From assembly GCA_964554375.1 (NCBI GenBank), contig CAZKOL010000001.1, positions 24,597 through 88,596 on the forward strand: a stretch of 64,000 bases of DNA. Reading direction: 5' to 3'. The notes under the pieces were generated by a model. That model searched no databases and had not been told where the DNA came from. It was given only the letters and a program-made list of their open reading frames with translations. The translations under genes were made by a program, and so were the position numbers. Positions 1,191 through 54,097 of this stretch are shown here, one piece after another. This stretch comes from an uncultured Dehalococcoidales bacterium. GTDB taxonomy: Bacteria; Chloroflexota; Dehalococcoidia; GIF9; UBA5629. The first letter of the stretch is position 1. Each line of letters starts with the position of its first letter.

Positions 1191-2942
1191 ATGTCAGAGC
1201 TGATTCCGAAAGGATTACCCAAAGGCCAACAGATACTGGAAAAAGGCAGAAAAACCGGCCGGGCCATTGAGATGGGCGTGAGCGCCTTCCAGCGCGAGAG
1301 GGGTCTCACCCTGTCGGACTGGAGGCGTCAGAATACCGGGGCAGGCAACGTGCTCTTCGTGGCGCAGATGGGGCTGGCCACGATCAAGGAACACGTGGAG
1401 GCGATGAAGGAGCTGTATGACAGGTGCAAGGAAAGGGGCACCGACGTGGGCGCCATGATCGTCACCAGCAACTGGGTCAACGGGCTGCCGCGCGGCGATT
1501 TACGCAGCAAGGCGCCCCGGGGCACCAGCTTTATCCTGGACGGCCCCGAGGACTTTGCCAGAGTAGCCCAGGCGGCGCCCATCATGCCGCTTTTCGCCGA
1601 CAACATGGTCGGCACGCCCAACTCGGTCAGCAACGCCGTCAACGCGCTCAAGGCGGGCGCCCCCGGCCTGGGCACCATGTCCCAGTTCACCTGGAACTAC
1701 CCCTACTGGCACGACGACGTGGGACAGGTCACGGCCACGGTCGAAGCCCTGGGCATACTGGCCGGCAAGCGCGAGCAGGGCGCGGGCATCGGCAGCTACA
1801 TGGGCGACGGCACTTCGGCCGGGTTCATCGACCACGCCTCAGAGGTCGGCTACTGCCTGCTCGAGCAATATATCGTGGAGAAGCTCTGCGGCGCCCGCTA
1901 TATGACCGGCCTGGGCGGGCTGATCAGCCATATACCCTCGAAGATGGCCACCTGGCTTGCGAGCCATGAAGTGCTCAAAGCGGCCCTGGGGACGGACGAT
2001 ATCGTCATGGTGCACGTGGAGGGCAATACCATCGAGGTCAGCGAGGACGCCCAGTCCAACTACGGCCTGGTGCTGGCGGACTTCCTGCCCTACGCCATCC
2101 TGGAACGTAAATACAAGACCGGCGCGTTCTACAGCGCCAAGCCGGTGATGGAGGCCGTCAGGGTCCCCACACTGACCGAGATAGCCGATGTCGTACTGGC
2201 CTGCGCGGCGGCACTGCGCAAGGCGCCCGAGTTTGAAGAGGCCAAGATTTTCAACGAGACCGAGATCAACAAGCTCAAGCGAGTGCTGGTAGTCAACGGC
2301 AGGAAGTTCTTCAGAAATATCCTGAAGGGCCTGCCAGAGATGGGCGTGGATATCAACGACCCCGTCCAGGTGCTGCTGGCGGTCCGCCGGCTGGGCGGTG
2401 CGAAGCTGGAGCAGCTTTATCATCCGGGCGAGAGGGACCCCAAAAAGTACCGCGGCATCGTCCCGTTTGCGCCCACCGACCTGATCATGATGCAGCAGAT
2501 GATAACCGATTGGACCGTCGATGCCATCCGCGCGGAGAAGCTGGGCGATTCCATCAGCGGCAAGAAGATCGTGGCCGGCTCGACCGACACGCACGAGTTC
2601 GGCCTCTATGTCCTGGAGGGGGTGCTCACCGCCTTCGGCGCCAGCGTTGTACACGCGGGAGTCGACCAGGACGCCGAGCAGATACTGGACGCGGCCCACA
2701 AAGCGGGCACGCCCTATATCGCGGTGAGCACGCACAACGGCCAGTGCCTGGAATGGGGCACAAATCTGGTGGAGGAGTCCCGCAGGCGCAGACAGCCCGT
2801 CACAGTATTCATGGGCGGCGTGCTCAACACCATCGTTGACGGCATCTCCGAGCCGGTCGATGTCACAGACCAGCTTTCGGCGCTGGGCATCAAGACCTGC
2901 GAAGATATCAATGCCATGTTCAAACAAATGGCCGGAGTATAG
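1191..2942 (+). CDS. cobalamin-dependent mutase-family protein: glutamate-mutase-E-like catalytic region fused to C-terminal B12-binding domain
   Basis: C-terminal ~130 aa carries DxHxxG (STDTHEFG), SxL-like and GG (FMGGVL) B12-binding motifs; N-terminal ~450 aa resembles methylaspartate mutase E / 2-methyleneglutarate mutase architecture; RBS gaggtgg upstream of ATG 1191. Confidence 0.5.
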   Translation: MSELIPKGLPKGQQILEKGRKTGRAIEMGVSAFQRERGLTLSDWRRQNTGAGNVLFVAQMGLATIKEHVEAMKELYDRCKERGTDVGAMIVTSNWVNGLPRGDLRSKAPRGTSFILDGPEDFARVAQAAPIMPLFADNMVGTPNSVSNAVNALKAGAPGLGTMSQFTWNYPYWHDDVGQVTATVEALGILAGKREQGAGIGSYMGDGTSAGFIDHASEVGYCLLEQYIVEKLCGARYMTGLGGLISHIPSKMATWLASHEVLKAALGTDDIVMVHVEGNTIEVSEDAQSNYGLVLADFLPYAILERKYKTGAFYSAKPVMEAVRVPTLTEIADVVLACAAALRKAPEFEEAKIFNETEINKLKRVLVVNGRKFFRNILKGLPEMGVDINDPVQVLLAVRRLGGAKLEQLYHPGERDPKKYRGIVPFAPTDLIMMQQMITDWTVDAIRAEKLGDSISGKKIVAGSTDTHEFGLYVLEGVLTAFGASVVHAGVDQDAEQILDAAHKAGTPYIAVSTHNGQCLEWGTNLVEESRRRRQPVTVFMGGVLNTIVDGISEPVDVTDQLSALGIKTCEDINAMFKQMAGV

Positions 2943-2985
2943 GTGTTACTCCCGGAGGTTCTGAAAATACACGGAGGAGACAGTT

Positions 2986-4428
2986 ATGGATAAAGTAAGT
3001 ACGACCAGCCACCGCCTTCCGCCCGTGCAGGGCACGGCCTCGTCCGAGGATATCGCAGCCATAGTTAATAAGCTACGCGACACCTTCAACACGGGTAAAA
3101 CACACGATATAAACTGGCGCCTGGGCCAGCTCAAGGCCATGAAAGCCATGTTGAAGGAGCACTACCGGGAGTTCATCGACGCGCTTACTTACGACACGGG
3201 GCGGCCGCTCTACGAAGCCTGGACCGGCGATGTTTTCTGCGCGCAGAATGAGATAAACGTGGCCATCAAGGGGCTGAAGAAATGGGTCAAGCCCAGGCCG
3301 CTGGAGTCGGACTTCGGCTTTTTCCCATCCAAAGCCTGGACCGTGCTCGATCCTCTGGGAGTGACGCTGGTCATCGCGCCCTGGAACTATCCTCTGGAGC
3401 TGGTGATGAACCCCGCGGTGGGGGCCATCGGCGCCGGCAACTGTGTCGTGATCAAGCCGTCCGAGATAGCGCCCCATACATCGGGGCTGGTGGCAAAATA
3501 CGTGCCGCAGTATATGGATAACGACGCGGTGGCCGTGGTGGAGGGCGGGGTAGCCCAGACCACCGCCCTGCTGGCGCAGCGCTTCGACCATATCTTCTAT
3601 ACGGGGAATGGCCGGGTGGGACGTATCGTACTGGAGGCCGCCGCCAAAAACCTGACCACCGTTAACCTGGAGCTGGGCGGAAAATGTCCCGCCTTTTTCA
3701 CTAAAAACGCCAACATGGGAGTAGCCTGCCGGCGCCTGGCCTGGGGCAAGTACTATAACAACGGTCAGACCTGCACCGCGCCGGACTACGTGCTGGTGGA
3801 GAAATCGGTCGAGGAGACCTTCCTCAAGTGCATGGCCAAGACTATAAAAGAATTCTACGGCGACGACCCCCAGAAAAGCGAGGACTACGGGCGCATCGTG
3901 AACGTGAACCATTTCAGACGTGTGGCCGCGCTGCTCAAAGGGGAGGAGGTCTACGTGGGCGGGCAGACCGACGAGTCGGACCTCTACATCGCTCCTACGG
4001 TGCTGGTCAACGTATCGCCGGACAGCCCGATCATGCAGGAGGAGATCTTCGGTCCCGTCATGCCGGTGATCGCCGTGCCGGACCTGGAGGCGGCCATCAA
4101 GTTCGTGAACGCGCGTCCCAAGCCTCTGGCCCAGTGCATCTACACGGAGAGCCGTGAGGAGGAAAAGATGATACTGGAGCGCACCACCGCCGGCGGCGTG
4201 GATATCAATACGGCCAACCTGCACAGCGCCACGCCGGGCATCCCCTTCGGGGGCGTGGGCGCCAGCGGCATGGGCGCCTATCACGGCAAGCTGAGCTTCG
4301 AGGCCTTCAGCCACCGTAAAAGCATAATCCGCGTGGGCGCCTGGACCGAGCTGGTGAGCCAGGCCATCAACCCGCCGTACACCAAGTGGAAATGGGACCT
4401 GGCCAAGCTGCTTTCGGGGACCTGGTGA
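2986..4428 (+). CDS. aldehyde dehydrogenase family protein (ALDH3-like)
   Basis: ELGGKCP glutamate motif, catalytic Cys in NNGQTCTAPDY, ~480 aa; strong RBS acggaggag. Confidence 0.85.
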   Translation: MDKVSTTSHRLPPVQGTASSEDIAAIVNKLRDTFNTGKTHDINWRLGQLKAMKAMLKEHYREFIDALTYDTGRPLYEAWTGDVFCAQNEINVAIKGLKKWVKPRPLESDFGFFPSKAWTVLDPLGVTLVIAPWNYPLELVMNPAVGAIGAGNCVVIKPSEIAPHTSGLVAKYVPQYMDNDAVAVVEGGVAQTTALLAQRFDHIFYTGNGRVGRIVLEAAAKNLTTVNLELGGKCPAFFTKNANMGVACRRLAWGKYYNNGQTCTAPDYVLVEKSVEETFLKCMAKTIKEFYGDDPQKSEDYGRIVNVNHFRRVAALLKGEEVYVGGQTDESDLYIAPTVLVNVSPDSPIMQEEIFGPVMPVIAVPDLEAAIKFVNARPKPLAQCIYTESREEEKMILERTTAGGVDINTANLHSATPGIPFGGVGASGMGAYHGKLSFEAFSHRKSIIRVGAWTELVSQAINPPYTKWKWDLAKLLSGTW

Positions 4429-4464
4429 TCAAAGCAAGGCGTAAATAACTGAAAGGAGACCAAA

Positions 4465-6370: not shown

Positions 6371-7561
6371 TCAGAATAACTCGCCTTTGTGCAAAAGCTC
6401 GCAGAACCTTTCAAACGGCATGACTTCCACCGGTCCGAAACGGTATGACCTCTGGCCAGAGTATACCCCGATCAGCCTGTCCGCCTTCACTTTATCCGCC
6501 GCTTTCAATGACAGCAGTGGCTTTTCCCAGGCGCGGTTCCAGCTACCGGCCCTTTTGACTTCGATCGCCACGATGTGCGGCACGGAATCAGCGTTGCGCC
6601 CGGATATCTCCACCACGAAATCGACTTCCACGCCTGCCGGGGTCCGGTAATAATGCACGGGCCGGTGTCTACGGCTGACCTCGTTGTAAACGCGCAGTTC
6701 GTGGTAGACCAGCGTTTCTAACGCAAAGCCCTGTGAACTGCCCTCAAGCGGATCGCGCACCCGACCGGCGGCCGCCCGGGCAACGCCCGGATCAAACCAG
6801 TAGAATTTTGGATGGGCAGCCTCACGTACTTTAAGTCCGGCGCGCCAGGCGGGCAGGAAATGTCCCAGCAGTGTGTCCACAAGGATAGAGAAATAAGATT
6901 CCACGGTGCTGCGAGCTGCGCCGGCGTCGCGGGCGATGTTCTGCATATTGACCACCTGGCCGTTCACCTGGCCGGCCACCGAGATGAACCGCATGAAGGG
7001 CGGCACGTTGCGCAGCAGCCCTTCCTGCCGTATCTCCTCGCGTATATGCGTGTCGAGATATGCTTCGAGAACGTCGGGGGCCTGCCGCGGGTCGCGCCGG
7101 ACCATGGGCAGCGAACCCCACTCGATAGCTGACGGCAGGTCAAAGGCCTTCCCCAGCTCTGCGGCGGAGAACCCCTCCATATTCAAAGTTATGGCGCGGC
7201 CTGCAAGCAGGTTGGCGCCTCCCCTGCGCAGCTTGCGCGCCGACGATCCGCAGAGCGCGAAACGCCAGTGCTGCGATTCGATCAGGCGGTGCACCTCGTC
7301 GAGCAGGGAAGGTATCTTCTGTATCTCATCCAGCACTATCCAGGCGCCGTCCGGCAGGCCGCCGGCCATGGCCTCGAGCCGGTGGGGGTCGCGTGACAGT
7401 TCGAGGTACAGGGACGCGTCCAGCAGGTCCAGGAAAAGCGCGCCGGGCAGCACATGCCGCAGCCATGTGCTCTTGCCGGTTCCGCGTGGACCAAACAGGA
7501 AGAATGAAACCTCCGGGCATTTCAGCAACCTGTCAATATATGGCTTAGCTACGTTATCCAT
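6371..7561 (-). CDS. AAA family ATPase (AAA_14 + DUF4143 C-terminal domain)
   Basis: Walker A GPRGTGKST, Walker B-like IVLDEIQ, C-terminal DUF4143-like region; 396 aa. Confidence 0.8.
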   Translation of the reverse strand: MDNVAKPYIDRLLKCPEVSFFLFGPRGTGKSTWLRHVLPGALFLDLLDASLYLELSRDPHRLEAMAGGLPDGAWIVLDEIQKIPSLLDEVHRLIESQHWRFALCGSSARKLRRGGANLLAGRAITLNMEGFSAAELGKAFDLPSAIEWGSLPMVRRDPRQAPDVLEAYLDTHIREEIRQEGLLRNVPPFMRFISVAGQVNGQVVNMQNIARDAGAARSTVESYFSILVDTLLGHFLPAWRAGLKVREAAHPKFYWFDPGVARAAAGRVRDPLEGSSQGFALETLVYHELRVYNEVSRRHRPVHYYRTPAGVEVDFVVEISGRNADSVPHIVAIEVKRAGSWNRAWEKPLLSLKAADKVKADRLIGVYSGQRSYRFGPVEVMPFERFCELLHKGELF

Positions 7562-7856: not shown

Positions 7857-9398
7857 TTACTGCTCCTCCGCCGCCTCTAATATCCGGTCAATCCTGAAAG
7901 TCCTCTCCTCGCCGCGTTTGAGGCAGAAGGCGCGCAGGCCGCGGAAGGTCTTGCCGCCGTAGGTGAAATCCCCCACCGCCAGCGGCCTGATCACGCGCAC
8001 CGACTTCTCGTCGTTGGGCTTGAGGTAGGTGATGCGCAGCTTGCCGCCCTCCGCGATGACCTTCAGGATGAGCTTCTCCTTGTCCTTTGCAGAAAGCAAT
8101 TGCTCGGCCTTGCCGTACTGGTAGCGCGTGACGAAATTCACCACGCGCCAGTCCATCCAGATGTGTTTCTTCTGGACCGGCTGTTTGAGCACGATGCCGC
8201 CCAGCGAGGTGCAGCGGCTGAGCGCCACGTACATCTGCCCGTGGGCGAAGGTGCCCCGCCCGATATCAATGACCACCCGTTCGAAGGTCTTGCCCTGGCT
8301 CTTGTGTATGGTCACCGCCCAGGCCAGCATCAGCGGGTACTGTGTGAAAGTGCCCACCACCTCCGATTTTATCTCCCTGCCCTCCAGCTTGTACTGGAAT
8401 ATCTCCCAGGTGTATGGCTCGACCATCTCGTCCTCGCCATCCGCGATCTGCACATTTATGTAAAGCCCGCCTTCACCATCCTTGCTGAACCCCTTTATTT
8501 TTCCCATGCTGCCGTTGACCCAGCGGCCGGCGGGGTCGTTGTTGAGCATCATCACCTGGGCGCTCGCCTTGACCATGAGAGCCTCGGCTGTGGGCAGGGA
8601 ATCGTCGCTGAATTTGCCGTCCCTGGACGCCCTGAAGGTGTGCAGCTTACCCTTGAGCTTTACCAGTTCTGCGGCGTTGAGGTCCGACGCCATGGCGTTG
8701 GTAGTGGTGAGCCGCACCGAGATCCCCCCTCCGGGCGCGTCCATTTCCGGGATGCAGCGTCTGTTGAGCAGTCCGAGTCCGGCGCCGTCGATGCTGTTGT
8801 TGCGGATAGCGTTGAGCAGTTCGATGAAGCTCTGGTCGTGCTGGCGGTAGACCTTCTCCAGCTCGATGAAATCCATGTCGAAATCCTTGAAAACATGTGA
8901 GCTGAAGAAATAGGGTGTTTCATAAAGCCCGGCGAAGGCTTCCTTATCCCTGGAGGTCACCACGGGCGGGAGCTGGTAGAGGTCGCCCACGAACACCATC
9001 TGGACGCCGCCGAAGGGCTTGCGGGAGTCCGGCCCGTTGAGCCGCAGGAACCGGTCCACGCAGTCCAGCAGGTCCGCCCTGACCATGGATATCTCGTCGA
9101 TCACCAGGATATCCAGCTTCTTGTAAAGGCTGCCGCCCCTTTCCACTTTCTTGACCTTCGGGGGCGTGATGTCGGGTTTGAAGCCGAAGAACGAGTGGAT
9201 GGTCTGGCCCTTGATGTTGAGAGCCGCCACGCCCGTGGGGGCCAGCGCTACGACCTTCTTGGCTGTTATGACGCGGAAATACTCGAGCAGGGTGGATTTG
9301 CCGGTGCCGGCGCGTCCCGTTATGAAAACGCACCTGCCCGTCCTCTCCATGACGTCCAGGGCGCGCCGGAACTGCTCGTTTATCTCGATGTGCTGCAC
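7857..9398 (-). CDS. Pif1/RecD-family (AAA_30) DNA helicase with C-terminal WYL domain
   Basis: Walker A GRAGTGKST, Walker B LVIDEISMV, helicase C region; last ~90 aa contain WYL signature LRAFCLKRGEERTFRIDRI. Confidence 0.8.
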   Translation of the reverse strand: MQHIEINEQFRRALDVMERTGRCVFITGRAGTGKSTLLEYFRVITAKKVVALAPTGVAALNIKGQTIHSFFGFKPDITPPKVKKVERGGSLYKKLDILVIDEISMVRADLLDCVDRFLRLNGPDSRKPFGGVQMVFVGDLYQLPPVVTSRDKEAFAGLYETPYFFSSHVFKDFDMDFIELEKVYRQHDQSFIELLNAIRNNSIDGAGLGLLNRRCIPEMDAPGGGISVRLTTTNAMASDLNAAELVKLKGKLHTFRASRDGKFSDDSLPTAEALMVKASAQVMMLNNDPAGRWVNGSMGKIKGFSKDGEGGLYINVQIADGEDEMVEPYTWEIFQYKLEGREIKSEVVGTFTQYPLMLAWAVTIHKSQGKTFERVVIDIGRGTFAHGQMYVALSRCTSLGGIVLKQPVQKKHIWMDWRVVNFVTRYQYGKAEQLLSAKDKEKLILKVIAEGGKLRITYLKPNDEKSVRVIRPLAVGDFTYGGKTFRGLRAFCLKRGEERTFRIDRILEAAEEQ

Positions 9399-9534
9399 TG
9401 CTGTTTCAGCAGATTATACAACACAACCCGGTCCCTGTTGCCGGTCACTTTACTATCTTGATTTGAAGACCTATCCTAGATGAGTTATATCGAATGAGCG
9501 CAAAATGTGGAACACTGCGATATAATAAAAAAGC

Positions 9535-10047
9535 ATGGAACTTTATACTGTTGGGCACAGCAATCATCCTCCGGAGAAATTTATCAAACTGCTCGAGGAT
9601 AACCTCATCGATTGTATAGTTGATGTGCGGAGCACTCCATACAGTCAGTGGGCACCGTTTGCCAACCGTGAAAACCTGGAAAAGCTGCTTTCGTCAACTG
9701 ACATTCACTATATTTATCTGGGAAATCTATTGGGGGGCCATATTGAAGGTCTGAACAGCAACAAGAAAGCTGAAAGGATGAAAACATACGATTTCCTTCG
9801 CCAGGAGGAATACTTTATCAGAGGTCTTAACAGGCTGCTTGCTGAAATTGATAAACACCGCACGTGTATTCTATGTTCCGAAGAAGACCCTTCTTCCTGC
9901 CATCGCCGCCTTCTCGTAGGATCAAGTATTGCGGCACAAGGGGTACAGGTCATGCACATACGTGGTGATGGCCGCCTGCAATCCGAAGAAGACCTCTGGA
10001 AAGAGGAACAAAAAATAGATCAGAGCCAGGTATCGTTCCATATCTGA
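9535..10047 (+). CDS. DUF488 family protein (copy 1)
   Basis: N-terminus MELYTVGHSNH...FIKLL...IDCIVDVRSTPYS matches DUF488 signature; conserved C..CHR near C-terminus; 170 aa. Confidence 0.7.
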   Translation: MELYTVGHSNHPPEKFIKLLEDNLIDCIVDVRSTPYSQWAPFANRENLEKLLSSTDIHYIYLGNLLGGHIEGLNSNKKAERMKTYDFLRQEEYFIRGLNRLLAEIDKHRTCILCSEEDPSSCHRRLLVGSSIAAQGVQVMHIRGDGRLQSEEDLWKEEQKIDQSQVSFHI

Positions 10048-10057
10048 AACAAATCTG

Positions 10058-10495
10058 ATGCATATATATACTATAGGTTTTACCAAAAGAACGGCAGCGA
10101 ATTTCTTCGAAACGCTTAAGAAAAGCGGCGCAAAGCATTTATTGGATATCCGCCTCAACAACACCTCACAGCTGGCAGCGTTCACCAAAAAGCAAGACCT
10201 CCCTTATTTTCTGAAGAGCTTGGCCGGCATTGAGTACCATGAGATGCCGGAGCTTGCTCCCAGCGATCCAATACTGAAAGAGTATCGCCGCAGTAAAAAC
10301 TGGAAAACCTATGAGGATGCATACAATAAGCTACTTGGGAAAAGAAAGGCTGAGAAATCTGTGTCCAAAGTATGGCTAAAAGAGGGCGCTGTAATGCTAT
10401 GCAGTGAGCACGACGCTACCAAATGCCACCGCCGCCTGGCTGCCGAATACATAGCTAATAAAAACACCGGTAAAATAACAGTCACGCACTTATAA
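10058..10495 (+). CDS. DUF488 family protein (copy 2, diverged paralogue)
   Basis: MHIYTIGFTKR...HLLDIRLNNTS and C-terminal CSEHDATKCHRRL parallel copy 1; 145 aa; 10-bp spacer after copy 1. Confidence 0.7.
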   Translation: MHIYTIGFTKRTAANFFETLKKSGAKHLLDIRLNNTSQLAAFTKKQDLPYFLKSLAGIEYHEMPELAPSDPILKEYRRSKNWKTYEDAYNKLLGKRKAEKSVSKVWLKEGAVMLCSEHDATKCHRRLAAEYIANKNTGKITVTHL

Positions 10496-10501
10496 AAGAA
10501 T

Positions 10502-11245
10502 TTGCGCCAGAAGATTGTGATCACTGACCTGACACAGATGCCGCAAGGCAATAAGGTATGCGTGATCGGCATCAATGAGCAGGGCAGGACGATAAGGCCG
10601 ATACACGATAATGGTTTCCTGAAAAATTATCTATACAACAGGTCTCAACTAATAATCTTTCCGCGTGCCATTATAGAGTTCGATTTTATCGGAGAAAAGC
10701 CTCAACCACCACACATAGAAGATATGGACTTTGATCCAACATTCATTAAATATCATGGACTAAGCGATGACACCAAGTGGGAGAGTACGTTGTTAATCAC
10801 CTCTTTCAATACCGTAAACAAAATATATGAAGGTAATCTCAAATATGGAAAATGGGTACCGCCTGGTGCTAAAACAAGATCAATAGCCACACTATCCGGT
10901 TCAACCGAACACTCATTTATCATTGAAGAAGGACGAGCACCTAAAACGCGTATCCGGTTTCTGGACGCATCTGGAAATGAATACAACCTGCCGGTGAGCG
11001 ATCTGGCAATCCGGGAATTATGTTTTAGCGAAGTAATAAGAAAAGGGAAAGCTGTAGCTGATGTTGCCGGTGAATTGAATAGGGCCATCGCACAGATTCG
11101 GAAGATTTACTTGAGGGTTGGTCTAGCCCGCGCATATAAAGTGGAGGGTGCCGAAACAGAACATTGCTATCCTCAGATAACAGGCATCCATACTATACCG
11201 GATTACTTGAACGGCAAAACCTTTGCTGATTTTGCCAAGCGCTAG
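10502..11245 (+). CDS. hypothetical protein, no recognisable domain; start codon uncertain (TTG 10502, GTG 10517 or ATG 10538)
   Basis: 247-aa ORF, AT-rich codon usage like the adjacent DUF488 genes; 6 bp after DUF488 copy 2. Confidence 0.5.
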   Translation: MRQKIVITDLTQMPQGNKVCVIGINEQGRTIRPIHDNGFLKNYLYNRSQLIIFPRAIIEFDFIGEKPQPPHIEDMDFDPTFIKYHGLSDDTKWESTLLITSFNTVNKIYEGNLKYGKWVPPGAKTRSIATLSGSTEHSFIIEEGRAPKTRIRFLDASGNEYNLPVSDLAIRELCFSEVIRKGKAVADVAGELNRAIAQIRKIYLRVGLARAYKVEGAETEHCYPQITGIHTIPDYLNGKTFADFAKR

Positions 11246-11478
11246 TGAGCGCAGATGATCTACCCCAATATACTTACAGTTTATTCAGGCGTAATGATTC
11301 TATTTCTCATCTTAACCAGGGCATAAACAATTTCAGGCATTTGTCCCAGACCGCATCGCTATAATTATATGGCGGCCTATGAACTTGACGCCATCCCTGC
11401 CAGCGGCATCCTTAACGGCACGTGAAGCGTCATGCGGCGTTTTGAAGTTGCTGTGTAATGCAATTCGTCCACCCTAAA

Positions 11479-12009
11479 TTAATTGCCGGTTTCGATACCT
11501 TGTTTCGCTATAGATGCTAAAAGAGCCGTGAGACCCCCCTGCATGACAACCGGAAAATATTTCCGCACCTCCATCTGAAACTGCACATTTATCTGTTCTG
11601 AAATCTGCCTGTCGTCGTATAAATGCAATCGGGCAAATGGGATATCACCCGTACCGATACCTTCTCTATCACAGACAACCGCAAACCATTGCATCTGGGG
11701 ACCGATCCTAAGTGCAAGGAAATATCCGGCATACCCGTCTACCGCGCGCTGGCGCAAACAAGAAAAATCCTTTTGCTGAACGATTATGCCCTTCCCTGTC
11801 GTTATCTTTAATTCAAACGAATAACAGCCGCCTCTGCTATCAATTGCGTCTATGTCCGCGTCTTCCGATATATGATTACGTATACTGTTCCATTTCAACT
11901 CATGTAACGCCAACACCATAATGCACTGGCAAATTTTACCTAACTGCGTAGTGCCATATTTGTCATTCAATTGCAGCAGCAATTGTTCACAGTCGTTTTC
12001 AAACGTCAT
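11479..12009 (-). CDS. hypothetical protein, third gene of the SMC-like ATPase operon (possible PD-(D/E)xK-like nuclease)
   Basis: 176-aa ORF starting 2 bp after the ATPase stop; motif D57...E66-L-K68 (AIDSRGGCYSFELK) compatible with a restriction-endonuclease-fold catalytic core; inference only. Confidence 0.45.
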   Translation of the reverse strand: MTFENDCEQLLLQLNDKYGTTQLGKICQCIMVLALHELKWNSIRNHISEDADIDAIDSRGGCYSFELKITTGKGIIVQQKDFSCLRQRAVDGYAGYFLALRIGPQMQWFAVVCDREGIGTGDIPFARLHLYDDRQISEQINVQFQMEVRKYFPVVMQGGLTALLASIAKQGIETGN

Positions 12010-12010
12010 C

Positions 12011-14131
12011 TCAGTTTATATCGGGGCCATTGGACGGATCCCAGCCACTGAATTCAATTACTTTCATGCTCATAGTCAAATTGTCCTTTAACATGACCAG
12101 AAGTTCCGAATCCATCGTGCTGACGATTACCTGACGCGTCTTGGCCGCGTCAGAAATAAGTTCCGCTATCCTTTCCTTATGATGCTTTGCCATACTTTGG
12201 GAAGGATCATCAAAGATAATAGCATTAAACGGTAAATCCTTTGTATTAGATGCACCGATACCGTAAAAAATGGACAAAGCCAGTGCATTAAGATCGCCCT
12301 GGCTCAGAATGGGAATAACATCATCACCAGAACTGTCGCGAAATAGAAAGTTTTCGTTACCACGTGATTGTTCCAGGCACATCTCCAAATCGACTATACC
12401 CGGGTTCTCCGCTATTCTGTCGAAACATTTTTTGATGGATTCTTTGGAGCTATTCACCCTCGATGCTCCTTCTTCATCCCGAATAGCCTTTACAGCCTTT
12501 AAAATTGCTTCTATATCGAGGATCTTCCACTCGGCATATTCGCGTAGAGTGGACAGCTGCTTGTAATTCGAATCATCCTTAACATTTGACAGGCGCTTGA
12601 TGTGTTCCTTGTTTTCCAAAATCCTGCAATAATCAATGATGGCATCGGAGTCGTCCTCTATTGCCCGGATTCTCGGTTCGAGGGACTTTAATGCATCCTC
12701 GAGTTGAAGCTTGGCTTCTTTTGCTGGCTTTATTTTGCCCGCGATGACTATCGCGAGATCCTCCCCCTTTTGCAAACTTATCTTAAGATCCTTCGCTACG
12801 CGGTCGCAGTTTTCAGCATATGACGTTCTCAGGGATGCTTCCGGTACGGTAAGGGTTAAGATCTTGTTTAATAAACCCGTAGCGCTTTCTATTTCTTTGG
12901 TTTTTCCATCCACACATTGGGATAAGGTCATGACTTCTGAGTCAGTCAACTGCTTCAATTTGTTGGCCAGATAAGAAATCTGATCCTGAGTGTCGCTTCC
13001 ACAGGCAGGGCATTGCGCGGCGCCCGTACCAGTCCCACTGTCTCTCATATATCGGTAGAGCGGATCTATAGCGGCATAAAGAGCGTTTATCCTGGCCAGA
13101 CTGGCTTCTATTTGCTTTTTTTCTTCAGTTAAACCGCTGATTTTGCCCTTAATTGATACTTCGTCACCATTTTGTGCTATGAACTCCGACATTTTTTTTC
13201 CGGCCACATCCAAATCCAGCTTCAATTTATTAATTACAGCCAATTTCCCTTCATAATTAACAATCTCTTCAGCTATCGCCTGATTACGAATGCTTGTAGG
13301 CGAGTGAATGAAATATTCACGCGCCAGTCGTTTAATCTGCATTACTCTTTCGTAAATATCTTTATGCCCTTGGATTTTTTCCGCGCTACCTGTGTCCCCG
13401 GTTCCACCCGTCGACTCAGTTAGCTTCTTTTGAAGTGACATGGCTTTCTGTTGCGCATTTTCGATTGAGACAAGGTTTACATTGAGTGCAAGTTTCTTGG
13501 CAATTTCTTCGTTCTGGCTGTTATAGCTTAATATACGGTCCTGAATCCGTTTGTTGATGCCATCTATAGATAGCTGCACCTTACTGGACCATTTATCATA
13601 TTTGCTGGCGGCAATAGTGCTCATCAACGAGTTGTACTCACCCAAACCCAACATCCTGTTGATTATTTCACGTTTATCTCGGGGTTCGGCAAGAGCCAGA
13701 TGCCGTATATTCTCCTGGTGTTGATAGACCATGGCCATAAAATCCATGAACTGACCGACTTGCTCATTTACCCACATATTGGCCGCGTCGCTCTTAATAA
13801 CTTTTTGGCTCATAGTTACGGTCAGTCCGTTATTACCTAATTTCGGGGTGCGCTCAAATATTATCGTATCTTGATCATTGTGACATGTCAGAATAACCCG
13901 GCAGGCGTGTGTCCTTGTGCGATTTTGCGGCTTCCAGTCTTTCCTTTCACGAATGCCGGTAGAGAGCCCGACGCATTTATCGCCAAACAGGCACCATTCA
14001 ACGGCATTTAGCGTGCTGCTTTTACCCTGGGCATTATTGCCGTACAACACGGTCACAGGACTGGTGAAATCAATTGTCTTCCCGCTTGTAAACGCGCGAA
14101 AACCCTGGATAGTAATTTTATCAATCCTCAT
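12011..14131 (-). CDS. Rad50/SbcC-like SMC-family ABC ATPase with central CxxC zinc-hook
   Basis: N-terminal Walker A GNNAQGKSST in an AAA_23-like head, long coiled-coil middle, CPACGS at aa 374-378 (apex), C-terminal signature LSQGDLNALALS and Walker B AIIFDDPSQS; 706 aa. Confidence 0.75.
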   Translation of the reverse strand: MRIDKITIQGFRAFTSGKTIDFTSPVTVLYGNNAQGKSSTLNAVEWCLFGDKCVGLSTGIRERKDWKPQNRTRTHACRVILTCHNDQDTIIFERTPKLGNNGLTVTMSQKVIKSDAANMWVNEQVGQFMDFMAMVYQHQENIRHLALAEPRDKREIINRMLGLGEYNSLMSTIAASKYDKWSSKVQLSIDGINKRIQDRILSYNSQNEEIAKKLALNVNLVSIENAQQKAMSLQKKLTESTGGTGDTGSAEKIQGHKDIYERVMQIKRLAREYFIHSPTSIRNQAIAEEIVNYEGKLAVINKLKLDLDVAGKKMSEFIAQNGDEVSIKGKISGLTEEKKQIEASLARINALYAAIDPLYRYMRDSGTGTGAAQCPACGSDTQDQISYLANKLKQLTDSEVMTLSQCVDGKTKEIESATGLLNKILTLTVPEASLRTSYAENCDRVAKDLKISLQKGEDLAIVIAGKIKPAKEAKLQLEDALKSLEPRIRAIEDDSDAIIDYCRILENKEHIKRLSNVKDDSNYKQLSTLREYAEWKILDIEAILKAVKAIRDEEGASRVNSSKESIKKCFDRIAENPGIVDLEMCLEQSRGNENFLFRDSSGDDVIPILSQGDLNALALSIFYGIGASNTKDLPFNAIIFDDPSQSMAKHHKERIAELISDAAKTRQVIVSTMDSELLVMLKDNLTMSMKVIEFSGWDPSNGPDIN

Positions 14132-14370
14132 AGGTCTCCTTCTTCCCGGTTCGACTCTGAATCTATCTCTTGACAGCCGTCTAATGCCCCACTTTCCAGC
14201 TCCTCCGCTGTGCCCTGAATGCTACCACCCATTTCATTTAAAAAGGCCTTCACAGAATCCTCTCCCCCCTGATCCAACTTGTCACATATCAGTTGAAACA
14301 TCTTTAGCCTTTCTTCTGACCGGGATGTACTGAAACTCACAATTTTCTGCTTGATCTTTTCCAGTTCCAT
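14128..14370 (-). CDS. small acidic protein, first gene of the SMC-like ATPase operon
   Basis: 80-aa ORF, strong RBS gaggagg, stop overlaps ATPase start (ATGA); Glu/Asp-rich. Confidence 0.5.
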   Translation of the reverse strand: MELEKIKQKIVSFSTSRSEERLKMFQLICDKLDQGGEDSVKAFLNEMGGSIQGTAEELESGALDGCQEIDSESNREEGDL

Positions 14371-14839
14371 TTAGCCTCCTCATGTGATGATTGCAGAGCG
14401 TCAAACCTTATTTATCGTTAAGAATAAGTTGCATATCCAGAATGACTACAATTGTTCAGGTAAATGCCGGTAAGCAGTACGGGTGAATATCTTTCCCCTG
14501 TCCCCCACACAGCCTGTCTCATACCAATTCCTCGGATGGCCAAATGCCGGCCAGTATGCCATTACACTACCTCCCGGATCATCATTTCGACATCTGCCCT
14601 ATATTACAACATCGTCCGTCTGCAATCAATATTGAACAGCTTATACGTACACAATAAGTCTACGACTATTGACAATAAAATGTTAATATGTCCAATCAGT
14701 AATGATTGAGTCGATTTATTCATAGGGAGTCACAGCTCCTTATACGTGGGATTTTTATGTATAAATGACTTAATAGCGGAATGTGATACTAATATATTAT
14801 TTGTGTCATAATATGCAGTATGCTCATGGAGGTGCAGAA

Positions 14840-15121
14840 ATGATAGTTAAGAATAAGTACAAATTAACGATAAAGGAAGCCCTTATTCTTTTCTTGAAAA
14901 ATCAGCCTAGCATGCAGGCTCGCTTATCTGAAATATACTTAGGTGTAAATGGTATCTTAAAAAGGGATGTGGCACCATCCGTTATTAGAGGTGTCATATA
15001 TATGGAAATGAAAAGATCTCAAGATCGCAAAGCTACAATAATCACACGTGTTGCCCCGGGTATTTATCGCTTAGCTAGTGGGGGAGCTAGCCAAGCCCGC
15101 CGTAATGTCCACAAAGGTTAA
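14840..15121 (+). CDS. small winged-helix protein (Mrr_N-like DNA-binding domain), putative regulator
   Basis: 93-aa product (MIVKNKYKLTIKEALILFLKN...GIYRLASGG) resembles the restriction-system Mrr N-terminal wHTH; RBS ggaggtg; sits between two defence modules. Confidence 0.4.
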   Translation: MIVKNKYKLTIKEALILFLKNQPSMQARLSEIYLGVNGILKRDVAPSVIRGVIYMEMKRSQDRKATIITRVAPGIYRLASGGASQARRNVHKG

Positions 15122-15330
15122 CACGCAAGACGAAGTTCTTGTAATAAGATGTTCTAGTGTCCCGATGCCCAATTTCGTATTATTGAAATCCTACAGGTTG
15201 AATATTAAGGTATTACAGCGTAGGATATTGCCTGTAGTGATCTTCAGTTGTGCTGATTGTTCTTAATGTGAGACTGAAAAAACTGGGAGTATAGTAAATT
15301 GCTGAAGGAAAAATATTAGAGCCGAAAACA

Positions 15331-18300
15331 ATGTCATCTGATCTCACTTTTCTAACCAACGAACCAGAAAATACCCTGCTTGACCGTTTCTTAGTGTTAC
15401 TCAAGAAAGACTCGCGGTTTTTCGATTGTCTTGTAGGCTATTTTTTTATTAGTGGCTTCTATAAGCTTTATCCAGCTCTGGAGAATGTCGAAAAGATTCG
15501 TATTCTAATTGGTCTTCAGACCGACCGTGCCGCGTATGATCTTATACAAAGGGCTAACCAGCAGTATACTTTGCCTCTTGAATCCCATGCCACTGTGATC
15601 GAACACATTCCTTGTAATGTACTTGGTGAGTTAGAGAAGTCCGCCGATAGTTCAGACGTTGAAGCTGGCGTTCATAAGTTCGTCGAGTGGATTCGTTCGG
15701 GGAAATTGGAAATCAAAGCCTACCCTGGCGAAATACTCCATGCGAAGGTCTACATCATGACCTTTGCGGAAGGTGACCGTGATAAAGGGCGGGTAATCAC
15801 GGGGTCAAGCAACTTTACTCAATCAGGGCTACAGTTAAATCTTGAGTTCAATGTCGAGTTGAAAAACAGTGCTGATTATGATTTTGCCATTAATAAATTT
15901 AATGAGCTTTGGGCTGTCGCCGTGGATGTCTCCATGCCTTACGAAGACACCATCATTAATCGTTCGCCGTTCGCTCATTTTACGCCATATGAGCTTTATC
16001 TTAAATTCTTGTATGAGTATTTTAGAGACGAACTAAACCGGCCCGCTGAGCTTGAAGATATCTATGTACCTGACGAATTCAAACGCCTTAAATATCAAGA
16101 GGAAGCAGTTATCAGTGCCCGTAAAGTGCTTGAGGAATATGGTGGTGTGTTTTTAGCGGACGTCGTTGGTCTCGGCAAGACCTATATGGCTGCCTTGCTT
16201 GCCCAGCAGCTCGAGGGGCGCTCATTAGTTATAGCACCCCCTCATTTGTTGGATAAGCAGAATCGTGGCTCCTGGCCCAACGTCTTCGGTGATTTCCGTG
16301 TTCCCCATACTGACTTTGAATCTATTGGAATGCTGGAAAGCCTGTTAACACGCGATATATCAAAGTATTCCAATGTTTTCATCGACGAGTCACATCGTTT
16401 CCGTACTGAAACGAATCAAACCTATGAGATGCTTGCGCAAATTTGCCGCGGCAAGCGGGTTATCCTGGTTTCGGCAACACCTCTTAACAATACCCCACGG
16501 GATATACTCAGCCAGGTCAAGCTATTTCAGAACGGCAAGAATAGCACCATCCCTAATGTCCGCAATCTTGAAGCCTTTTTCTCGCAGCTTGAAAAAAACC
16601 TTAATAACCTTGATCGTCGGACCGACCGTGAACAATATTTCTCTGTAGTCCAGGCCAACGCCAAATTAACACGAGAGAATATTTTGAAGTACTTAATGAT
16701 CAGGCGAACACGCAATGAAATCATGAAATATTACGGGGATGACCTGAAAGCCCAGGGCTTTAAATTCCCCGATGTCGCCGATCCGCAGCCTCTATTCTAT
16801 AAGCTCAACAAAACTGAAAATGAAATATTTAACGAAATGGTACGTCTGATAACGCAGGCGTTTGTTTACGCTCGCTATAAGCCATTAACCTATTATGAGG
16901 GAAAGCGAGAACAACGTGATATACAAAGCCAGCGCAACCTGGCCAAATTTATGAAGATTCTCTTAATTAAACGGTTGGAGAGCAGCTTCCATGCCTTCCG
17001 TTTAACTCTCGATCGCTTTATCCACTCCTATGATCGCTTTATTGAGGAATATGATAATGGATATGTGTATATCAGCAAAAAGCATATAGGTAAAATACTG
17101 GAACTTCTGGAAACGGATGACCAAGAAGCCGTTGACCGGTTGCTTGAATCGGATAAGGCCGAGCGTTTAAATGCGAAGGACTTTAATGCGGAGTTTATCA
17201 ATGACCTCAAGGCTGACCGAAAGGTCCTGCAGGAAATTGACACCCTTTGGAAGCGGATCAAGCGGGATCCCAAATGGGAGGCTTTTCGTGCCGTTCTGAC
17301 TACTGATTCCACGCTAAAGAAAGGCAAAGTTATCATCTTTACTGAATCAAAAGAGACTGCCGAATATCTTTCTCAGAAGATTGCCGCTGAAGTTGATAAA
17401 AAGGTGCTTTTATATACCGGCCATTCTGACGAGTCTGTTCGTAAAACCGTTATATCTAATTTTGATGCCCGCGCTTTTCAGCCCCAGGACGAATATCGGA
17501 TTCTGGTCGCTACAGAAGTACTTTCCGAAGGTGTCAACCTTCACCGGTCAAACATTGTAGTTAACTACGATATACCATGGAATCCCACCCGTCTCATCCA
17601 GCGTGTCGGGCGGGTAAACCGGGTTGATACAACATTCCCCATCATCCACACTTACAATTTTTTCCCAACTGAAGAGAGTAATGATCTGATTAAACTAAAA
17701 GAAGCGGCTGAAGCCAAAATCCATGCTTTCATCGAAATGCTCGGCGCCGATGCCCGTCTGCTTACTGAAGGCGAAGAGATCAAATCGCATGATTTGTTTG
17801 CCAAGTTGATTTCTAAGAAAACGATAACGGGTGAGGATGAAGAGGAACAGAGCGAACTGGAATATCTCACTGAAATTCGTGGGGTTCGTGATAATCAACC
17901 CGACATGTTCTTACGCATTAAGAGATTACCCCGGAAGGCCCGTTCGACCAGGCTTTCATCGGTGCAGGATAATGCTGAAGTGAAACAATATCCTTCCCTG
18001 ATAACCTATTTTCGCCAGGGCAGGCTTGATAAATTTTTCCTTGCCGGTATTGGCCCTGCTGATCCCATAGAGCTCGATTTCTTTAACACAGTATGTATTC
18101 TTAAGCCTGCCGACACTGAAGAAAAACTACAAGCAATACCGCATGATTTTTATACCCTATTAAATAGAAATAAACACGCCTTCGAAACAGCCACCAGCAC
18201 GGACATGGGTGATACCATCTCCCCGCAAAAGGGTGTGGCGAATGATGTTTATATACTAAAGCGCCTTAAGGCGAAGGAAATCCGTCACTATCATGGTTTC

Positions 18301-18549
18301 ACCGAGGATGATGAGCTGTACATTCGACAGGTAATCCAGCTCCTGACAGATGGGGCGCTCCCCAGGCCTACGACCAAAAAGGTAGCCGACGCTCTAAAAA
18401 AAGAAATGGAACCTCTTAAAGTTTTGGGGATTTTAAGGCGTGACATCCCATATCAGTTCTTCCAGGCAACCCGAGCGCAACAGACTGCTCAAGCATTCAA
18501 GCCTCGTGAAGTAATTCTTTCATCTTATCTATTGGAGGAAGGATCATGA
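15331..18549 (+). CDS. PLD-family nuclease fused to SNF2/SF2 helicase (putative restriction subunit)
   Basis: N-terminal PLD motif LHAKVYIM...GSSNFT; helicase motifs GLGKT (I), DESH (II), QRVGRVNR (VI); ~270-aa uncharacterised C-terminal region; 1072 aa. Confidence 0.8.
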   Translation: MSSDLTFLTNEPENTLLDRFLVLLKKDSRFFDCLVGYFFISGFYKLYPALENVEKIRILIGLQTDRAAYDLIQRANQQYTLPLESHATVIEHIPCNVLGELEKSADSSDVEAGVHKFVEWIRSGKLEIKAYPGEILHAKVYIMTFAEGDRDKGRVITGSSNFTQSGLQLNLEFNVELKNSADYDFAINKFNELWAVAVDVSMPYEDTIINRSPFAHFTPYELYLKFLYEYFRDELNRPAELEDIYVPDEFKRLKYQEEAVISARKVLEEYGGVFLADVVGLGKTYMAALLAQQLEGRSLVIAPPHLLDKQNRGSWPNVFGDFRVPHTDFESIGMLESLLTRDISKYSNVFIDESHRFRTETNQTYEMLAQICRGKRVILVSATPLNNTPRDILSQVKLFQNGKNSTIPNVRNLEAFFSQLEKNLNNLDRRTDREQYFSVVQANAKLTRENILKYLMIRRTRNEIMKYYGDDLKAQGFKFPDVADPQPLFYKLNKTENEIFNEMVRLITQAFVYARYKPLTYYEGKREQRDIQSQRNLAKFMKILLIKRLESSFHAFRLTLDRFIHSYDRFIEEYDNGYVYISKKHIGKILELLETDDQEAVDRLLESDKAERLNAKDFNAEFINDLKADRKVLQEIDTLWKRIKRDPKWEAFRAVLTTDSTLKKGKVIIFTESKETAEYLSQKIAAEVDKKVLLYTGHSDESVRKTVISNFDARAFQPQDEYRILVATEVLSEGVNLHRSNIVVNYDIPWNPTRLIQRVGRVNRVDTTFPIIHTYNFFPTEESNDLIKLKEAAEAKIHAFIEMLGADARLLTEGEEIKSHDLFAKLISKKTITGEDEEEQSELEYLTEIRGVRDNQPDMFLRIKRLPRKARSTRLSSVQDNAEVKQYPSLITYFRQGRLDKFFLAGIGPADPIELDFFNTVCILKPADTEEKLQAIPHDFYTLLNRNKHAFETATSTDMGDTISPQKGVANDVYILKRLKAKEIRHYHGFTEDDELYIRQVIQLLTDGALPRPTTKKVADALKKEMEPLKVLGILRRDIPYQFFQATRAQQTAQAFKPREVILSSYLLEEGS

Positions 18550-22405: not shown

Positions 22406-22482
22406 AAACATCATTTATTAACCATTTCTTTCGGCTGATTCATGCCGGATACTGTACGTAACCGGTACATCATGCCAACCTA

Positions 22483-26458: not shown

Positions 26459-26492
26459 ATATTGTGTATAAAATGCAGATTTGGAGAATGTC

Positions 26493-54076: not shown

Positions 54077-54097
54077 CCGCTGAGAGGAGTACCGATA

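Follow-up and report, generated by a model that had tools for sequence, protein, structure and literature searches.

Two diverged DUF488 genes and a gene for a dual OB-containing protein (DuOB) form a real cassette whose three members are inherited together. The genes were analysed in a window of 64,000 nt, which is the whole stretch of DNA under study. The encoded proteins are read here as a DUF488 heterodimer and a DuOB partner that would act on DNA, most likely against invading DNA. We give this reading as a whole a probability of about 40%.

The features of the trio and its neighbours are listed in Table 1. The initial annotation had described three open reading frames separated by 10 and 6 bp and flanked by a Pif1-WYL helicase gene and an SMC-like operon. 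Reading of the sequence returned the same three frames on the same strand, with spacers at 10048–10057 (between copy 1 and copy 2) and 10496–10501 (between copy 2 and the DuOB gene), and both flanks were located as described. Some gene callers assign a 242-aa product with a GTG start to the DuOB gene. The 247-aa form is favoured because the N-termini of homologues, M(R/K)(Q/K)x(L/I)VITDLTQM, align with the N-terminus that is read from the TTG start. The AT-rich composition attributed to the trio was also recovered: its GC content is 0.44–0.46, as in the low-GC block at 9399–22405, compared with 0.58–0.60 in the flanks, and the Pif1 gene resembles the remainder of the window. Upstream of copy 1 the leader contains TATAAT at 9521–9526, 8 nt ahead of the ATG, which was left unscored by a consensus promoter scan; this leader may be a promoter for a leaderless or near-leaderless mRNA. 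Around the cassette, no promoter or terminator signals above background and no flanking repeats, tRNA or Rfam match were detected.

Table 1. Positions of the cassette genes, their leader and the neighbouring genes in the 64,000-nt window.
Feature	Position	Strand	Remarks
Pif1+WYL helicase gene, neighbour of the trio	7857–9398	−	GC 0.60
Conserved upstream leader of the cassette	9498–9534	+	Start of the block of about 80% nucleotide homology with locus L011
DUF488 paralogue 1 (copy 1, long type)	9535–10047	+	170 aa, ATG start
DUF488 paralogue 2 (copy 2)	10058–10495	+	145 aa, ATG start
DuOB protein, third gene	10502–11245	+	247 aa, TTG start
Lamassu (LmuB SMC-type) system, adjoining the trio	11479–14370	−	Same low-GC island
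SMC/LmuB-like gene, neighbour of the trio	12011–14131	−	PADLOC LmuB-like match

Inheritance as a unit was assessed across genomes in which this DuOB occurs. In 75 of the 77 evaluable ones DuOB has both DUF488 paralogues next to it, so the recurrence of the trio exceeds chance and the triplets do co-occur, as the initial annotation had proposed to profile. The order copy 1–copy 2–DuOB on one strand is kept at 74 of the 77 evaluable loci, and one further locus is permuted. Pairwise correlations between the identity matrices of the three proteins are r = 0.85–0.88, a level reached by none of 500 permutations; for copy 1 and copy 2 the value is 0.88. The trio was present at all six diverged metagenome loci, each time among unrelated neighbours. 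The DNA shared by the window and locus L011 consists of the trio block (9498–11229, 80% identity) and an ADP-ribosylglycohydrolase gene, and nothing else. Start and stop codons of cassette genes overlap by 4 bp at loci L012, L015, L017 and L100, and at locus L106 a copy 1-type and a copy 2-type DUF488 are fused in a single 377-aa ORF that is followed by DuOB. An ancient duplication or a heterodimer had been suggested for the two DUF488 genes; the constancy of the pair, its co-divergence, the overlaps and the fusion bear this out, the heterodimer itself being probable. An alternative left flank was considered for the cassette at locus L001. The alignment is identical to the window into the Pif1 gene and diverges only inside it, and a different flank was rejected in favour of an internal deletion, a rearrangement or an assembly chimera.

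Both paralogues belong to the Pfam DUF488 family (PF04343, gathering score 22.2 bits), with 76.7 bits for copy 1 (E = 2.9e-21) and 78.6 bits for copy 2 (E = 8e-22). Copy 2 is also a member of DUF488-N3a (PF22751, 'Active DUF488-N3 subclade'; 43.6 bits, E = 4.2e-11, gathering score 27 bits). Copy 1 scores 19.7 bits against this profile, below its threshold, and has no DUF488-N3i match either. The two proteins share 28% identity (BLASTP E = 2e-11), in keeping with the distant similarity noted at the outset, and the (Y/H)T(V/I)G(H/F) and C...CHRR-type motifs were found in both. Copy 1 carries YTVGHS near its N-terminus and CSEEDPSSCHRR; its conserved residues are GHS, D30-x-R32, LGG and C114-x-E116...C122-H123-R124, and it ends in a C-terminal HIRGDG extension. 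The corresponding elements of copy 2 are YTIGFT near the N-terminus and CSEHDATKCHRR, with GFT, D30-x-R32 and C115-S-E117...C123-H124-R125-R126. Neither copy shows any change at D30, R32, C114/115, E116/117, H123/124 or R124/125 across 79 cassettes. The second cysteine is retained in 78 of 79 (C122, copy 1) and in all 79 (C123, copy 2). Because copy 1 matches neither N3a nor N3i and all of the motif residues are kept, the two proteins look, from their sequences, like two active enzymes and not like an active/inactive pair. The lack of an assigned function for DUF488 that had been noted agrees with the searchable literature, in which no experimentally assigned function, no functional study of DUF488 or DUF488-N3, no established activity and no solved structure were found. 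Sequence and profile comparisons likewise returned no solved structure of a DUF488 or DuOB relative. NCBIfam profiles gave no match for the cassette proteins, and PHROGs gave weak matches only, to families of unknown function.

The AlphaFold2 model of copy 2 (pLDDT 89.9) has five strands that alternate with helices in a Rossmann-like manner. In the model and alignment, the invariant cysteine ends a central strand and the invariant arginine opens the helix that follows. The only structural neighbours among PDB and viral structures were weak ones: PRL cysteine phosphatases, tetrapyrrole-type methylases and the RapZ C-terminal domain (RapZ-C). The best value against cysteine phosphatases (E = 0.02, probability 0.51) is statistically insignificant. 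PTP/PRL phosphatases and RapZ-C have a Rossmann-like α/β fold in which the placement of Cys and Arg on strand and helix is analogous to that in DUF488. The phosphatases, however, use C-X5-R, and this PTP/DSP active-site loop is absent from DUF488, in which the loop C115-S-E-x5-C123-H-R125-R126 corresponds to C-X9-R. The Rossmann-like fold, the cysteine at a strand end and the Cys-His-Arg group at the start of the next helix resemble cysteine phosphatases and RapZ-C. More tentatively than for the heterodimer, we suggest that DUF488 probably performs phosphate or sugar-phosphate chemistry on the terminal nucleotide, in DNA-end processing or modification. We know of no phosphatase activity for DUF488. 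Work by Burroughs and Aravind from 2023 reportedly unites the PRL phosphatases, the tetrapyrrole-type methylases and RapZ-C, and is said probably to describe this system.

The third protein had been put down as having no recognisable domain. This did not hold: it is a member of Pfam DuOB (PF22557, 'Dual OB-containing domain') with 36.9 bits against a gathering score of 27 bits. The match spans residues 10–229, equivalent to profile positions 6–210 of 210, and homologues are annotated alike. The placement of the gene in the same unit as the DUF488 pair and its conservation stood, and structure prediction gave a confident two-OB model (AlphaFold2, pLDDT 94.3, pTM 0.91) with successive β-barrel segments at residues 2–87 and 128–232. 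The best Foldseek matches in the PDB were the tandem-OB proteins TEBP-alpha, Teb1 and POT1 together with SSBs, at marginal values (E = 1e-3 to 1e-2, probability 0.66–0.97, TM 0.25–0.37, 7–11% identity). These proteins have two consecutive OB barrels, as modelled in DuOB, but lack its invariant P-H-x-E-D and Arg/Ser residues. The resemblance is structural only; no sequence match of DuOB to PDB chains of SSB/POT1-type families was obtained. In all 79 cassettes C20, R32, P70-H71-x-E73-D74, S127, T130 and R205 are invariant; G207, L208 and R210 persist in 78, C222 in 77 and D234 in 76. For R126, invariance is limited to the 40-sequence alignment (A1). The invariant H-x-E-D motif and a number of Arg, Ser and Asp residues that are likewise invariant suggest that DuOB, instead of binding passively, may have catalytic activity of its own. 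Relatives of DuOB are fused to a full RecQ helicase (DEAD, Helicase_C, RecQ_Zn_bind, RQC and HRDC), to RQC and HRDC, to HRDC alone or to HEAT repeats. Because these RecQ, RQC, HRDC or HEAT fusions recur, DNA is the likely substrate, and from the model DuOB is predicted to be the subunit that binds single-stranded DNA (ssDNA) or DNA ends. Some DuOB proteins carry an N-terminal extension of about 140 aa; a fused DUF488 was considered there and rejected (hhalign probability below 1%).

PADLOC assigns copy 1 to PDC-M45B (E = 1.2e-43) and copy 2 to PDC-M45C (E = 3.8e-54), both over essentially their full length, and the cassette of locus L100 gives the same B and C matches. PDC-M45 in PADLOC-DB v2 has A, B and C components, of which B and C are common to the window cassette; it is a candidate system, not a validated one, and PADLOC has no model for the DuOB of the window. 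PDC-M45A was matched neither in the window nor among 18 chosen neighbours or 141 immediate neighbours. A divergent DuOB family stands beside DUF488 pairs in another gene order, for example on the Agrobacterium plasmid pAt1D1108a (NZ_CP032923.1, cassette at about 31.2–33.2 kb), and is related to DuOB with an hhalign probability of 90% (E = 1.4e-6, 204 columns). PDC-M45A is likely to be this DuOB-like family of about 233 aa, which is encoded upstream of the DUF488 pairs. If so, the window cassette would be a variant in gene order and subfamily, with the canonical DuOB downstream. No functional study was found in the literature on PDC-M45, DuOB or 'dual OB'. The trio had already been recognised, in the PADLOC models PDC-M45B and PDC-M45C and the Pfam families DUF488-N3a, DUF488-N3i and DuOB, two of which (N3a and DuOB) take in copy 2 and the third protein, respectively. 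The cassette is thus a good experimental lead and not a new kind of system: PADLOC and Pfam already list it as an untested candidate conflict system.

The genomic surroundings give a mixed case for a defence role. Besides the LmuB-like SMC gene, the island in the window contains a PLD-SNF2 helicase together with a type IIG methyltransferase. At locus L013 the cassette adjoins BrxL, OLD/UvrD and ThsB-TIR genes, at L011 it adjoins PDC-M11A/B and HicB, and at L100 it comes after HerA and a Dam-like methyltransferase. The association with a defence island that had been claimed therefore stands for the window and for L011, L012, L013 and L100. It is weak in the wider sample: among the immediate neighbours in species-representative genomes only about ten of 141 (about 7%, a figure that has no matched baseline) are credible matches to defence models, and those in Chloroflexota genomes are mostly metabolic or housekeeping genes. 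In nine Dehalococcoidia genomes the cassette converges on ruvB, within a housekeeping neighbourhood that is conserved and includes znuA and ABC transporter genes; at L015 it interrupts a nuo operon and at L017 it follows an AlkD-type DNA_alkylation gene. The 505 neighbours fall into 408 clusters. A recurrent fourth gene was sought among them and rejected, the recurrence of ABC transporter, RuvB and ZnuA genes being lineage synteny. The Pif1-WYL helicase was also rejected as a fourth component, given its GC content of 0.60 versus 0.45, its divergent transcription and its absence from all diverged loci. The Lamassu system adjoins the trio in the same low-GC island and accompanies it in every contig with the identical cassette, but it lies on the opposite strand, and an LmuB-like gene is absent from L011–L017 and L100; since the trio occurs there without LmuB, the two are separate systems and the trio was rejected as a part of Lamassu.

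In the mechanism that we propose, the two DUF488 proteins would form a heterodimeric enzyme with cysteine-phosphatase-like chemistry. DuOB would be its targeting subunit, gripping ssDNA, a junction between single- and double-stranded DNA or a DNA 3′ end in a manner analogous to POT1/TEBP, and would present the gripped DNA to the DUF488 pair, which might in turn process or modify the terminal nucleotide. The role would most likely be to counter invading DNA, which would make the cassette a candidate system of the PDC-M45 type against phages or mobile elements. Three features suggest such a role: the cassette moves as a discrete block of about 1.7 kb, is patchily distributed and often resides in defence islands, that of the window among them. 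A more specific version, which we consider unlikely, makes the DUF488 heterodimer and DuOB a hitherto uncharacterised type of immune effector that senses invading linear DNA by its free single-stranded ends, as telomere-end binders sense 3′ overhangs. It would modify or demodify the terminal nucleotide through phosphate or sugar-phosphate chemistry that relies on cysteine and has yet to be described for DNA, and so block the replication, circularization or packaging of phage genomes, with the fused RecQ making the substrate in some lineages.

The serious rival to defence is DNA repair, which we hold to be possible, if somewhat doubtful. The same complex of a DUF488 heterodimer and a DuOB DNA binder would then serve endogenous maintenance, acting on damaged or blocked DNA ends or ssDNA gaps during recombination or replication restart, with RecQ- or RuvAB-type partners. 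The fusions of DuOB to bona fide RecQ modules, RQC and HRDC among them, suit such a role, although RecQ-like helicases also occur in defence systems (DpdF and PsyrT model matches). The HEAT fusions, the AlkD-type gene at L017, the ruvB-convergent lineage and the roughly 93% of immediate neighbours in species genomes that are not defence genes point the same way, as does a solo DUF488-N3a-like gene that lies directly 3′ of a UvrA paralogue on many enterobacterial conjugative plasmids. The distribution argues against it: a search of 185,579 species genomes returned no more than 139 relatives, almost all of them in Chloroflexota, unlike core repair genes. So does the movement of a discrete 1.7-kb block between unrelated contexts, even into a nuo operon. 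Furthermore, the closest relatives of the window copy lie among defence genes and the DUF488 pair is itself a PADLOC defence candidate.

Two further explanations depart from DNA as a target or from a benefit to the host. DuOB might be an S1/cold-shock-like RNA binder and the DUF488 pair a processor of RNA termini (2′,3′-cyclic phosphate, 5′-phosphate or ADP-ribose-linked) in RNA repair or an RNA-targeting conflict. RNA is a common ligand of OB folds; the DuOB profile matches ribosomal protein uS4 weakly (E = 0.0037), ribosomal OB proteins appear in the Foldseek list, DUF488 weakly resembles the C-terminal domain of RapZ, a small-RNA adaptor protein, and ADP-ribosylglycohydrolase genes occur in the island of the cassette in both the window and L011. 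The uS4 and RapZ-C matches are nevertheless insignificant, the top structural matches of DuOB are ssDNA binders and its recurrent fusion partners (RecQ helicase core, RecQ_Zn_bind, RQC and HRDC) are DNA-specific, which makes an RNA target improbable. We give even less credence to a selfish toxin–antitoxin addiction module, in which one DUF488 would be a toxin neutralized by its paralogue or by DuOB and the cassette would persist and move through post-segregational killing instead of host benefit. It would account for small, tightly coupled and co-inherited genes in a discrete mobile block and for the HicB and PemK genes that adjoin the cassette in some contigs, and the 'active' and 'inactive' DUF488-N3 subclades of Pfam can be read as an enzyme and a pseudo-enzyme inhibitor. 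Neither paralogue is pseudo-enzyme-like, however, with every motif residue kept across the 79 cassettes apart from the single loss of C122. The single-chain fusion at L106 would be unusual for a toxin–antitoxin pair, the DuOB–RecQ fusions imply a constructive handling of DNA, and in one lineage the cassette is stably retained in a housekeeping context.

For DUF488, a large and widespread family, the cassette defines the partners, namely a paralogue in a probable heterodimer and a predicted dual-OB DNA binder, and the RecQ-fused variants make DNA a probable substrate. Because these partners and the probable DNA substrate are defined, the function of DUF488 becomes directly testable, and the homologous cassette on a plasmid of Agrobacterium tumefaciens 1D1108, which is in culture, is a tractable place to start. 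If the cassette is defensive, the known immune repertoire would gain a chemistry directed at DNA ends; if it acts in repair, it would represent an accessory end-processing pathway in Chloroflexota. DuOB was not found by tblastn in PLSDB plasmids or INPHARED phages, and IMG/VR contains one DuOB match in 2.9 million contigs. Homologues of copy 2 form more than 1,457 clusters, and DUF488 members are also encoded by jumbo phages and by more than 120 enterobacterial plasmids.

Three open reading frames lie on the plus strand at exactly the positions proposed in the initial annotation, with spacers of 10 bp between the two DUF488 genes (copies 1 and 2) and 6 bp between copy 2 and the third gene. Copies 1 and 2 scored far above the Pfam DUF488 threshold, carry the motifs described for them and are indeed distantly alike, with a mutual identity of 28%. 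The third product had been described as lacking a recognizable domain; it instead matches the Pfam Dual OB-containing domain (DuOB) at 36.9 bits (cut-off 27). Its start codon is supported by the N-terminus MRQK(L/I)VITDLTQM, which its homologues share. The GC content of the trio (0.44–0.46) is that of the whole block 9399–22405, in line with the AT-rich, island-like composition noted earlier; the Pif1–WYL helicase gene, which is divergent to the trio, has a GC content of 0.60, as has the remaining window. CopA, encoded at the far end of the window, shares 82–85% identity with proteins of Dehalococcoidia MAGs, which most likely places the host in the Chloroflexota. The features are listed in the following table.

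Coordinates of the cassette, its neighbours and the compared loci (window positions unless a locus is named)
Feature	Position	Strand	Description
Copy 1, DUF488	9535–10047	+	170 aa
Copy 2, DUF488	10058–10495	+	145 aa
DuOB protein	10502–11245	+	247 aa, TTG start
Lamassu-like operon	11479–14370	−	Three ORFs
176-aa protein	11479–12009	−	
LmuB-like SMC ATPase	12011–14131	−	PADLOC LmuB E = 2e-36
80-aa ORF	about 14128–14370	−	Lamassu-like operon
PLD (HKD)–SNF2 helicase locus	15331–21689	+	Helicase 1072 aa; PADLOC 'HKD+Snf2' E = 3e-50, DrmD-like
AAA_14/DUF4143 ATPase	6371–7561	−	PADLOC PDC-S01 E = 1e-50
Pif1 helicase	7857–9398	−	C-terminal WYL domain
AAA+ ATPase	24942–26510	−	522 aa; IetA-like PADLOC matches E = 1e-21
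ADP-ribosylglycohydrolase gene	22438–23249; L011 3611–4421		255 aa; 82% identity
L118, pAt1D1108a (NZ_CP032923.1)	2597–4441		233-aa DuOB-like, copy1-type DUF488 (35% to copy 1), DUF488-N3a (46%)
L015/L066, Thermoflexales MAG JBGSMF010000263.1	7025–10617		Cassette and 615-aa protein
L117, E. coli IncX5 plasmid NZ_CP086392.1	record 53524–56798		Solo DUF488-N3a-like gene
L001, truncated Pif1–WYL gene	2287–2802		

A search with the DuOB alignment gave 139 relatives, almost all from Chloroflexota; 80 of their loci were taken from species-representative genomes, and gene order was counted in the 77 with intact upstream DNA. Copy 1, copy 2 and DuOB follow one another in the same order and on the same strand in 74 of these, so the DUF488–DUF488–X triplets whose co-occurrence the initial annotation had suggested examining do recur; one locus has a permuted order and two carry DuOB alone in metabolic contexts. 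Six diverged metagenome loci have a trio of identical make-up among unrelated neighbours. Between the window and one compared locus, L011, the common block starts 37 bp ahead of copy 1 and extends through the end of DuOB (80% identity), and the only other gene in common encodes an ADP-ribosylglycohydrolase. The three proteins co-diverge across 79 cassettes (matrix correlations of 0.85–0.88, with none of 500 permutations as high) and 4 bp start/stop codon overlaps are frequent. The cassette is therefore a unit. In a further locus, L106, copy1-type and copy2-type DUF488 domains occupy one 377-residue reading frame followed by DuOB; together with the co-evolution, this fusion strongly suggests that the paralogues form the heterodimer proposed earlier. 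The L011 island otherwise differs from that of the window (PDC-M11A/B and HicB), and the relative order of the trio and the ADP-ribosylglycohydrolase gene differs between the two.

Copy 2 also matches Pfam DUF488-N3a ('Active DUF488-N3 subclade'), of which Pfam holds a sister family, DUF488-N3i ('Inactive'). Of the seven residues in the motifs D30-x-R32, C-x-E and C-H-R, six never vary in either paralogue across the 79 cassettes; the exception, C122 of copy 1, is present in 78. A further invariant signature is particular to each paralogue (GH, S37 and LGG in copy 1; GFT, Q38, W82 and R96 in copy 2). Because of the full motifs and separate signatures, both look like functional, subfunctionalized enzymes rather than an enzyme and a pseudo-enzyme. 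The DUF488-N3a model of copy 2 (pLDDT 89.9) is a Rossmann-like α/β domain for which no significant neighbour was found among solved structures; the best weak matches were PRL cysteine phosphatases, tetrapyrrole-type methylases and the RapZ C-terminal domain, and a viral structure library returned phage DUF488 proteins and a RapZ-C domain protein. Burroughs and Aravind reportedly united these three groups in 2023, and the weak neighbours of the predicted model appear to agree with that assignment. DUF488 has C-X9-R in place of the canonical C-X5-R signature of cysteine phosphatases. Both window copies also match another PADLOC candidate, PDC-M19A (E = 1e-13 to 1e-16), in which a C-terminal DUF488 domain (profile positions ~150–294) is fused to an N-terminal domain of ~150 residues.

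The AlphaFold2 model of DuOB, calculated with 40 homologues (pLDDT 94.3, pTM 0.91), has two β-barrels in succession. Its best matches among solved structures were Oxytricha TEBP-α, Teb1, human POT1 and SSBs, all marginal (E = 1e-3 to 1e-2); TEBP-α, Teb1 and POT1 are tandem-OB binders of single-stranded DNA and 3' ends. Polar positions are strikingly conserved in the aligned sequences: R32, P70-H71-x-E73-D74, S127, T130 and R205 do not vary in any of the 79 cassettes, R210 is kept in 78 and D234 in 76; in an alignment of 40 DuOB sequences (A1), R126 is likewise invariant. Among 1.84 billion representatives, a profile search picked up 1435 relatives, many of them fusions: to a complete RecQ (DEAD, Helicase_C, RecQ_Zn_bind, RQC and HRDC), to RQC and HRDC, to HRDC alone, to HEAT repeats, or to TPR and a RecQ-like helicase. 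One DuOB–RecQ protein (P0221) still has the two DUF488 genes upstream, and HerA and a Dam-like methyltransferase are encoded in the same operon. These fusions tie the system to DNA, probably single-stranded DNA, junctions or ends made or handled by a 3'–5' helicase. Six relatives (P0275, P0278, P0280, P0285, P0289 and P0310) share an N-terminal domain of ~120–140 residues without a Pfam match, with a coiled-coil-like start and YRV...W...WYTY motifs; its identification as DUF488 was rejected, and some of these proteins combine it with C-terminal RQC/HRDC or HEAT modules.

We propose that copy 1, copy 2 and DuOB would form a complex in which DuOB binds single-stranded DNA or DNA ends and delivers them to the DUF488 heterodimer; the latter may act on the terminal nucleotide by cysteine-dependent phosphate or sugar-phosphate chemistry.

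Copies 1 and 2 match PADLOC PDC-M45B (E = 1e-43) and PDC-M45C (E = 4e-54), respectively, so the system is already catalogued as a phage-defence candidate, and the window cassette belongs to a candidate system recognized computationally (Pfam DUF488-N3a and DuOB, PADLOC PDC-M45B/C). No PDC-M45A match was obtained with the PADLOC models in the window, 18 chosen neighbours or 141 immediate neighbours. Profile–profile comparison related DuOB to a divergent family of ~233 residues (probability 90%, E = 1.4e-6, 204 columns) whose genes precede DUF488 pairs in other loci, one of them on Agrobacterium tumefaciens pAt1D1108a; we infer that this A–B–C order is PDC-M45. The window cassette differs from that archetype in its downstream, canonical DuOB and its two apparently active DUF488 copies. 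The Agrobacterium locus, a version from a cultured organism, is flanked by HTH and ImmA/IrrE, TcmP and DUF5131, and integrase genes. With this cultured homologue, a defined set of partners, the Rosetta-stone fusion and the fusions to RecQ, the function of DUF488, long an open question, can be tested directly.

A role in conflict or defence is our leading, tentative reading (probability about 0.4). It is favoured by the PADLOC candidate status, by the patchy distribution and by the company the cassette keeps: an LmuB-like SMC operon and a PLD–SNF2 helicase with a type IIG methyltransferase in the window island, PDC-M11 and HicB in L011, BrxL, OLD/UvrD and ThsB–TIR genes beside one relative, a PLD nuclease beside another and HerA with a methyltransferase beside a third. 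Its insertion into a NADH dehydrogenase (nuo) operon in L015 also speaks for this role. The proposed defence-island association holds for the window and several relatives, but among the 141 genes directly next to the cassette in species genomes only ~10 match credible defence models, and most of the other genes among the 505 neighbours surveyed are metabolic. Those counts favour a repair function, a serious rival that we rate somewhat less probable and that draws further on nine Dehalococcoidia genomes in which the cassette adjoins ruvB within a conserved stretch of housekeeping genes, an AlkD-type gene preceding it in L017, and a solo DUF488-N3a-like gene directly after a UvrA paralogue on enterobacterial conjugative plasmids. 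An RNA-directed activity and an addiction module both rank well below conflict and repair.

At the nuo insertion, the cassette and a 615-residue protein without a Pfam or significant PADLOC match lie after the 51 kDa subunit gene and before the molybdopterin/Fe–S subunit gene. The solo gene on the IncX5 plasmid, 45% identical to copy 2, directly follows the plasmid's UvrA paralogue and is itself followed by frmR and an alcohol dehydrogenase gene; by tblastn, such DUF488 genes occur on 123 plasmids, most of them conjugative, from Enterobacter, Klebsiella, Citrobacter, Escherichia and Salmonella.

Assignment of the cassette to the adjacent Lamassu-like operon or the Pif1–WYL gene was rejected. 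No recognizable LmuA effector was found in that operon, and its 176-residue protein is unmatched in Pfam, PADLOC, NCBIfam and PHROGs. The PLD–SNF2 gene overlaps by 4 bp that of a type IIG-like Eco57I/TaqI_C methyltransferase (1047 residues; REase_MTase_IIG E = 3e-232), and the two are a separate restriction-like or DISARM-like system in the low-GC block. Just outside this block, the AAA_14/DUF4143 ATPase and Pif1–WYL genes, of host-like GC content (~0.60), may be further defence-related genes of composition unlike the island; the IetA-like ATPase lies just past it. In the compared contig L001 the Pif1–WYL gene is truncated: the exact match to the window ends at about 9170, beyond which the contig carries HGD-D and PemK genes, owing to an internal deletion, a rearrangement or a chimeric assembly.
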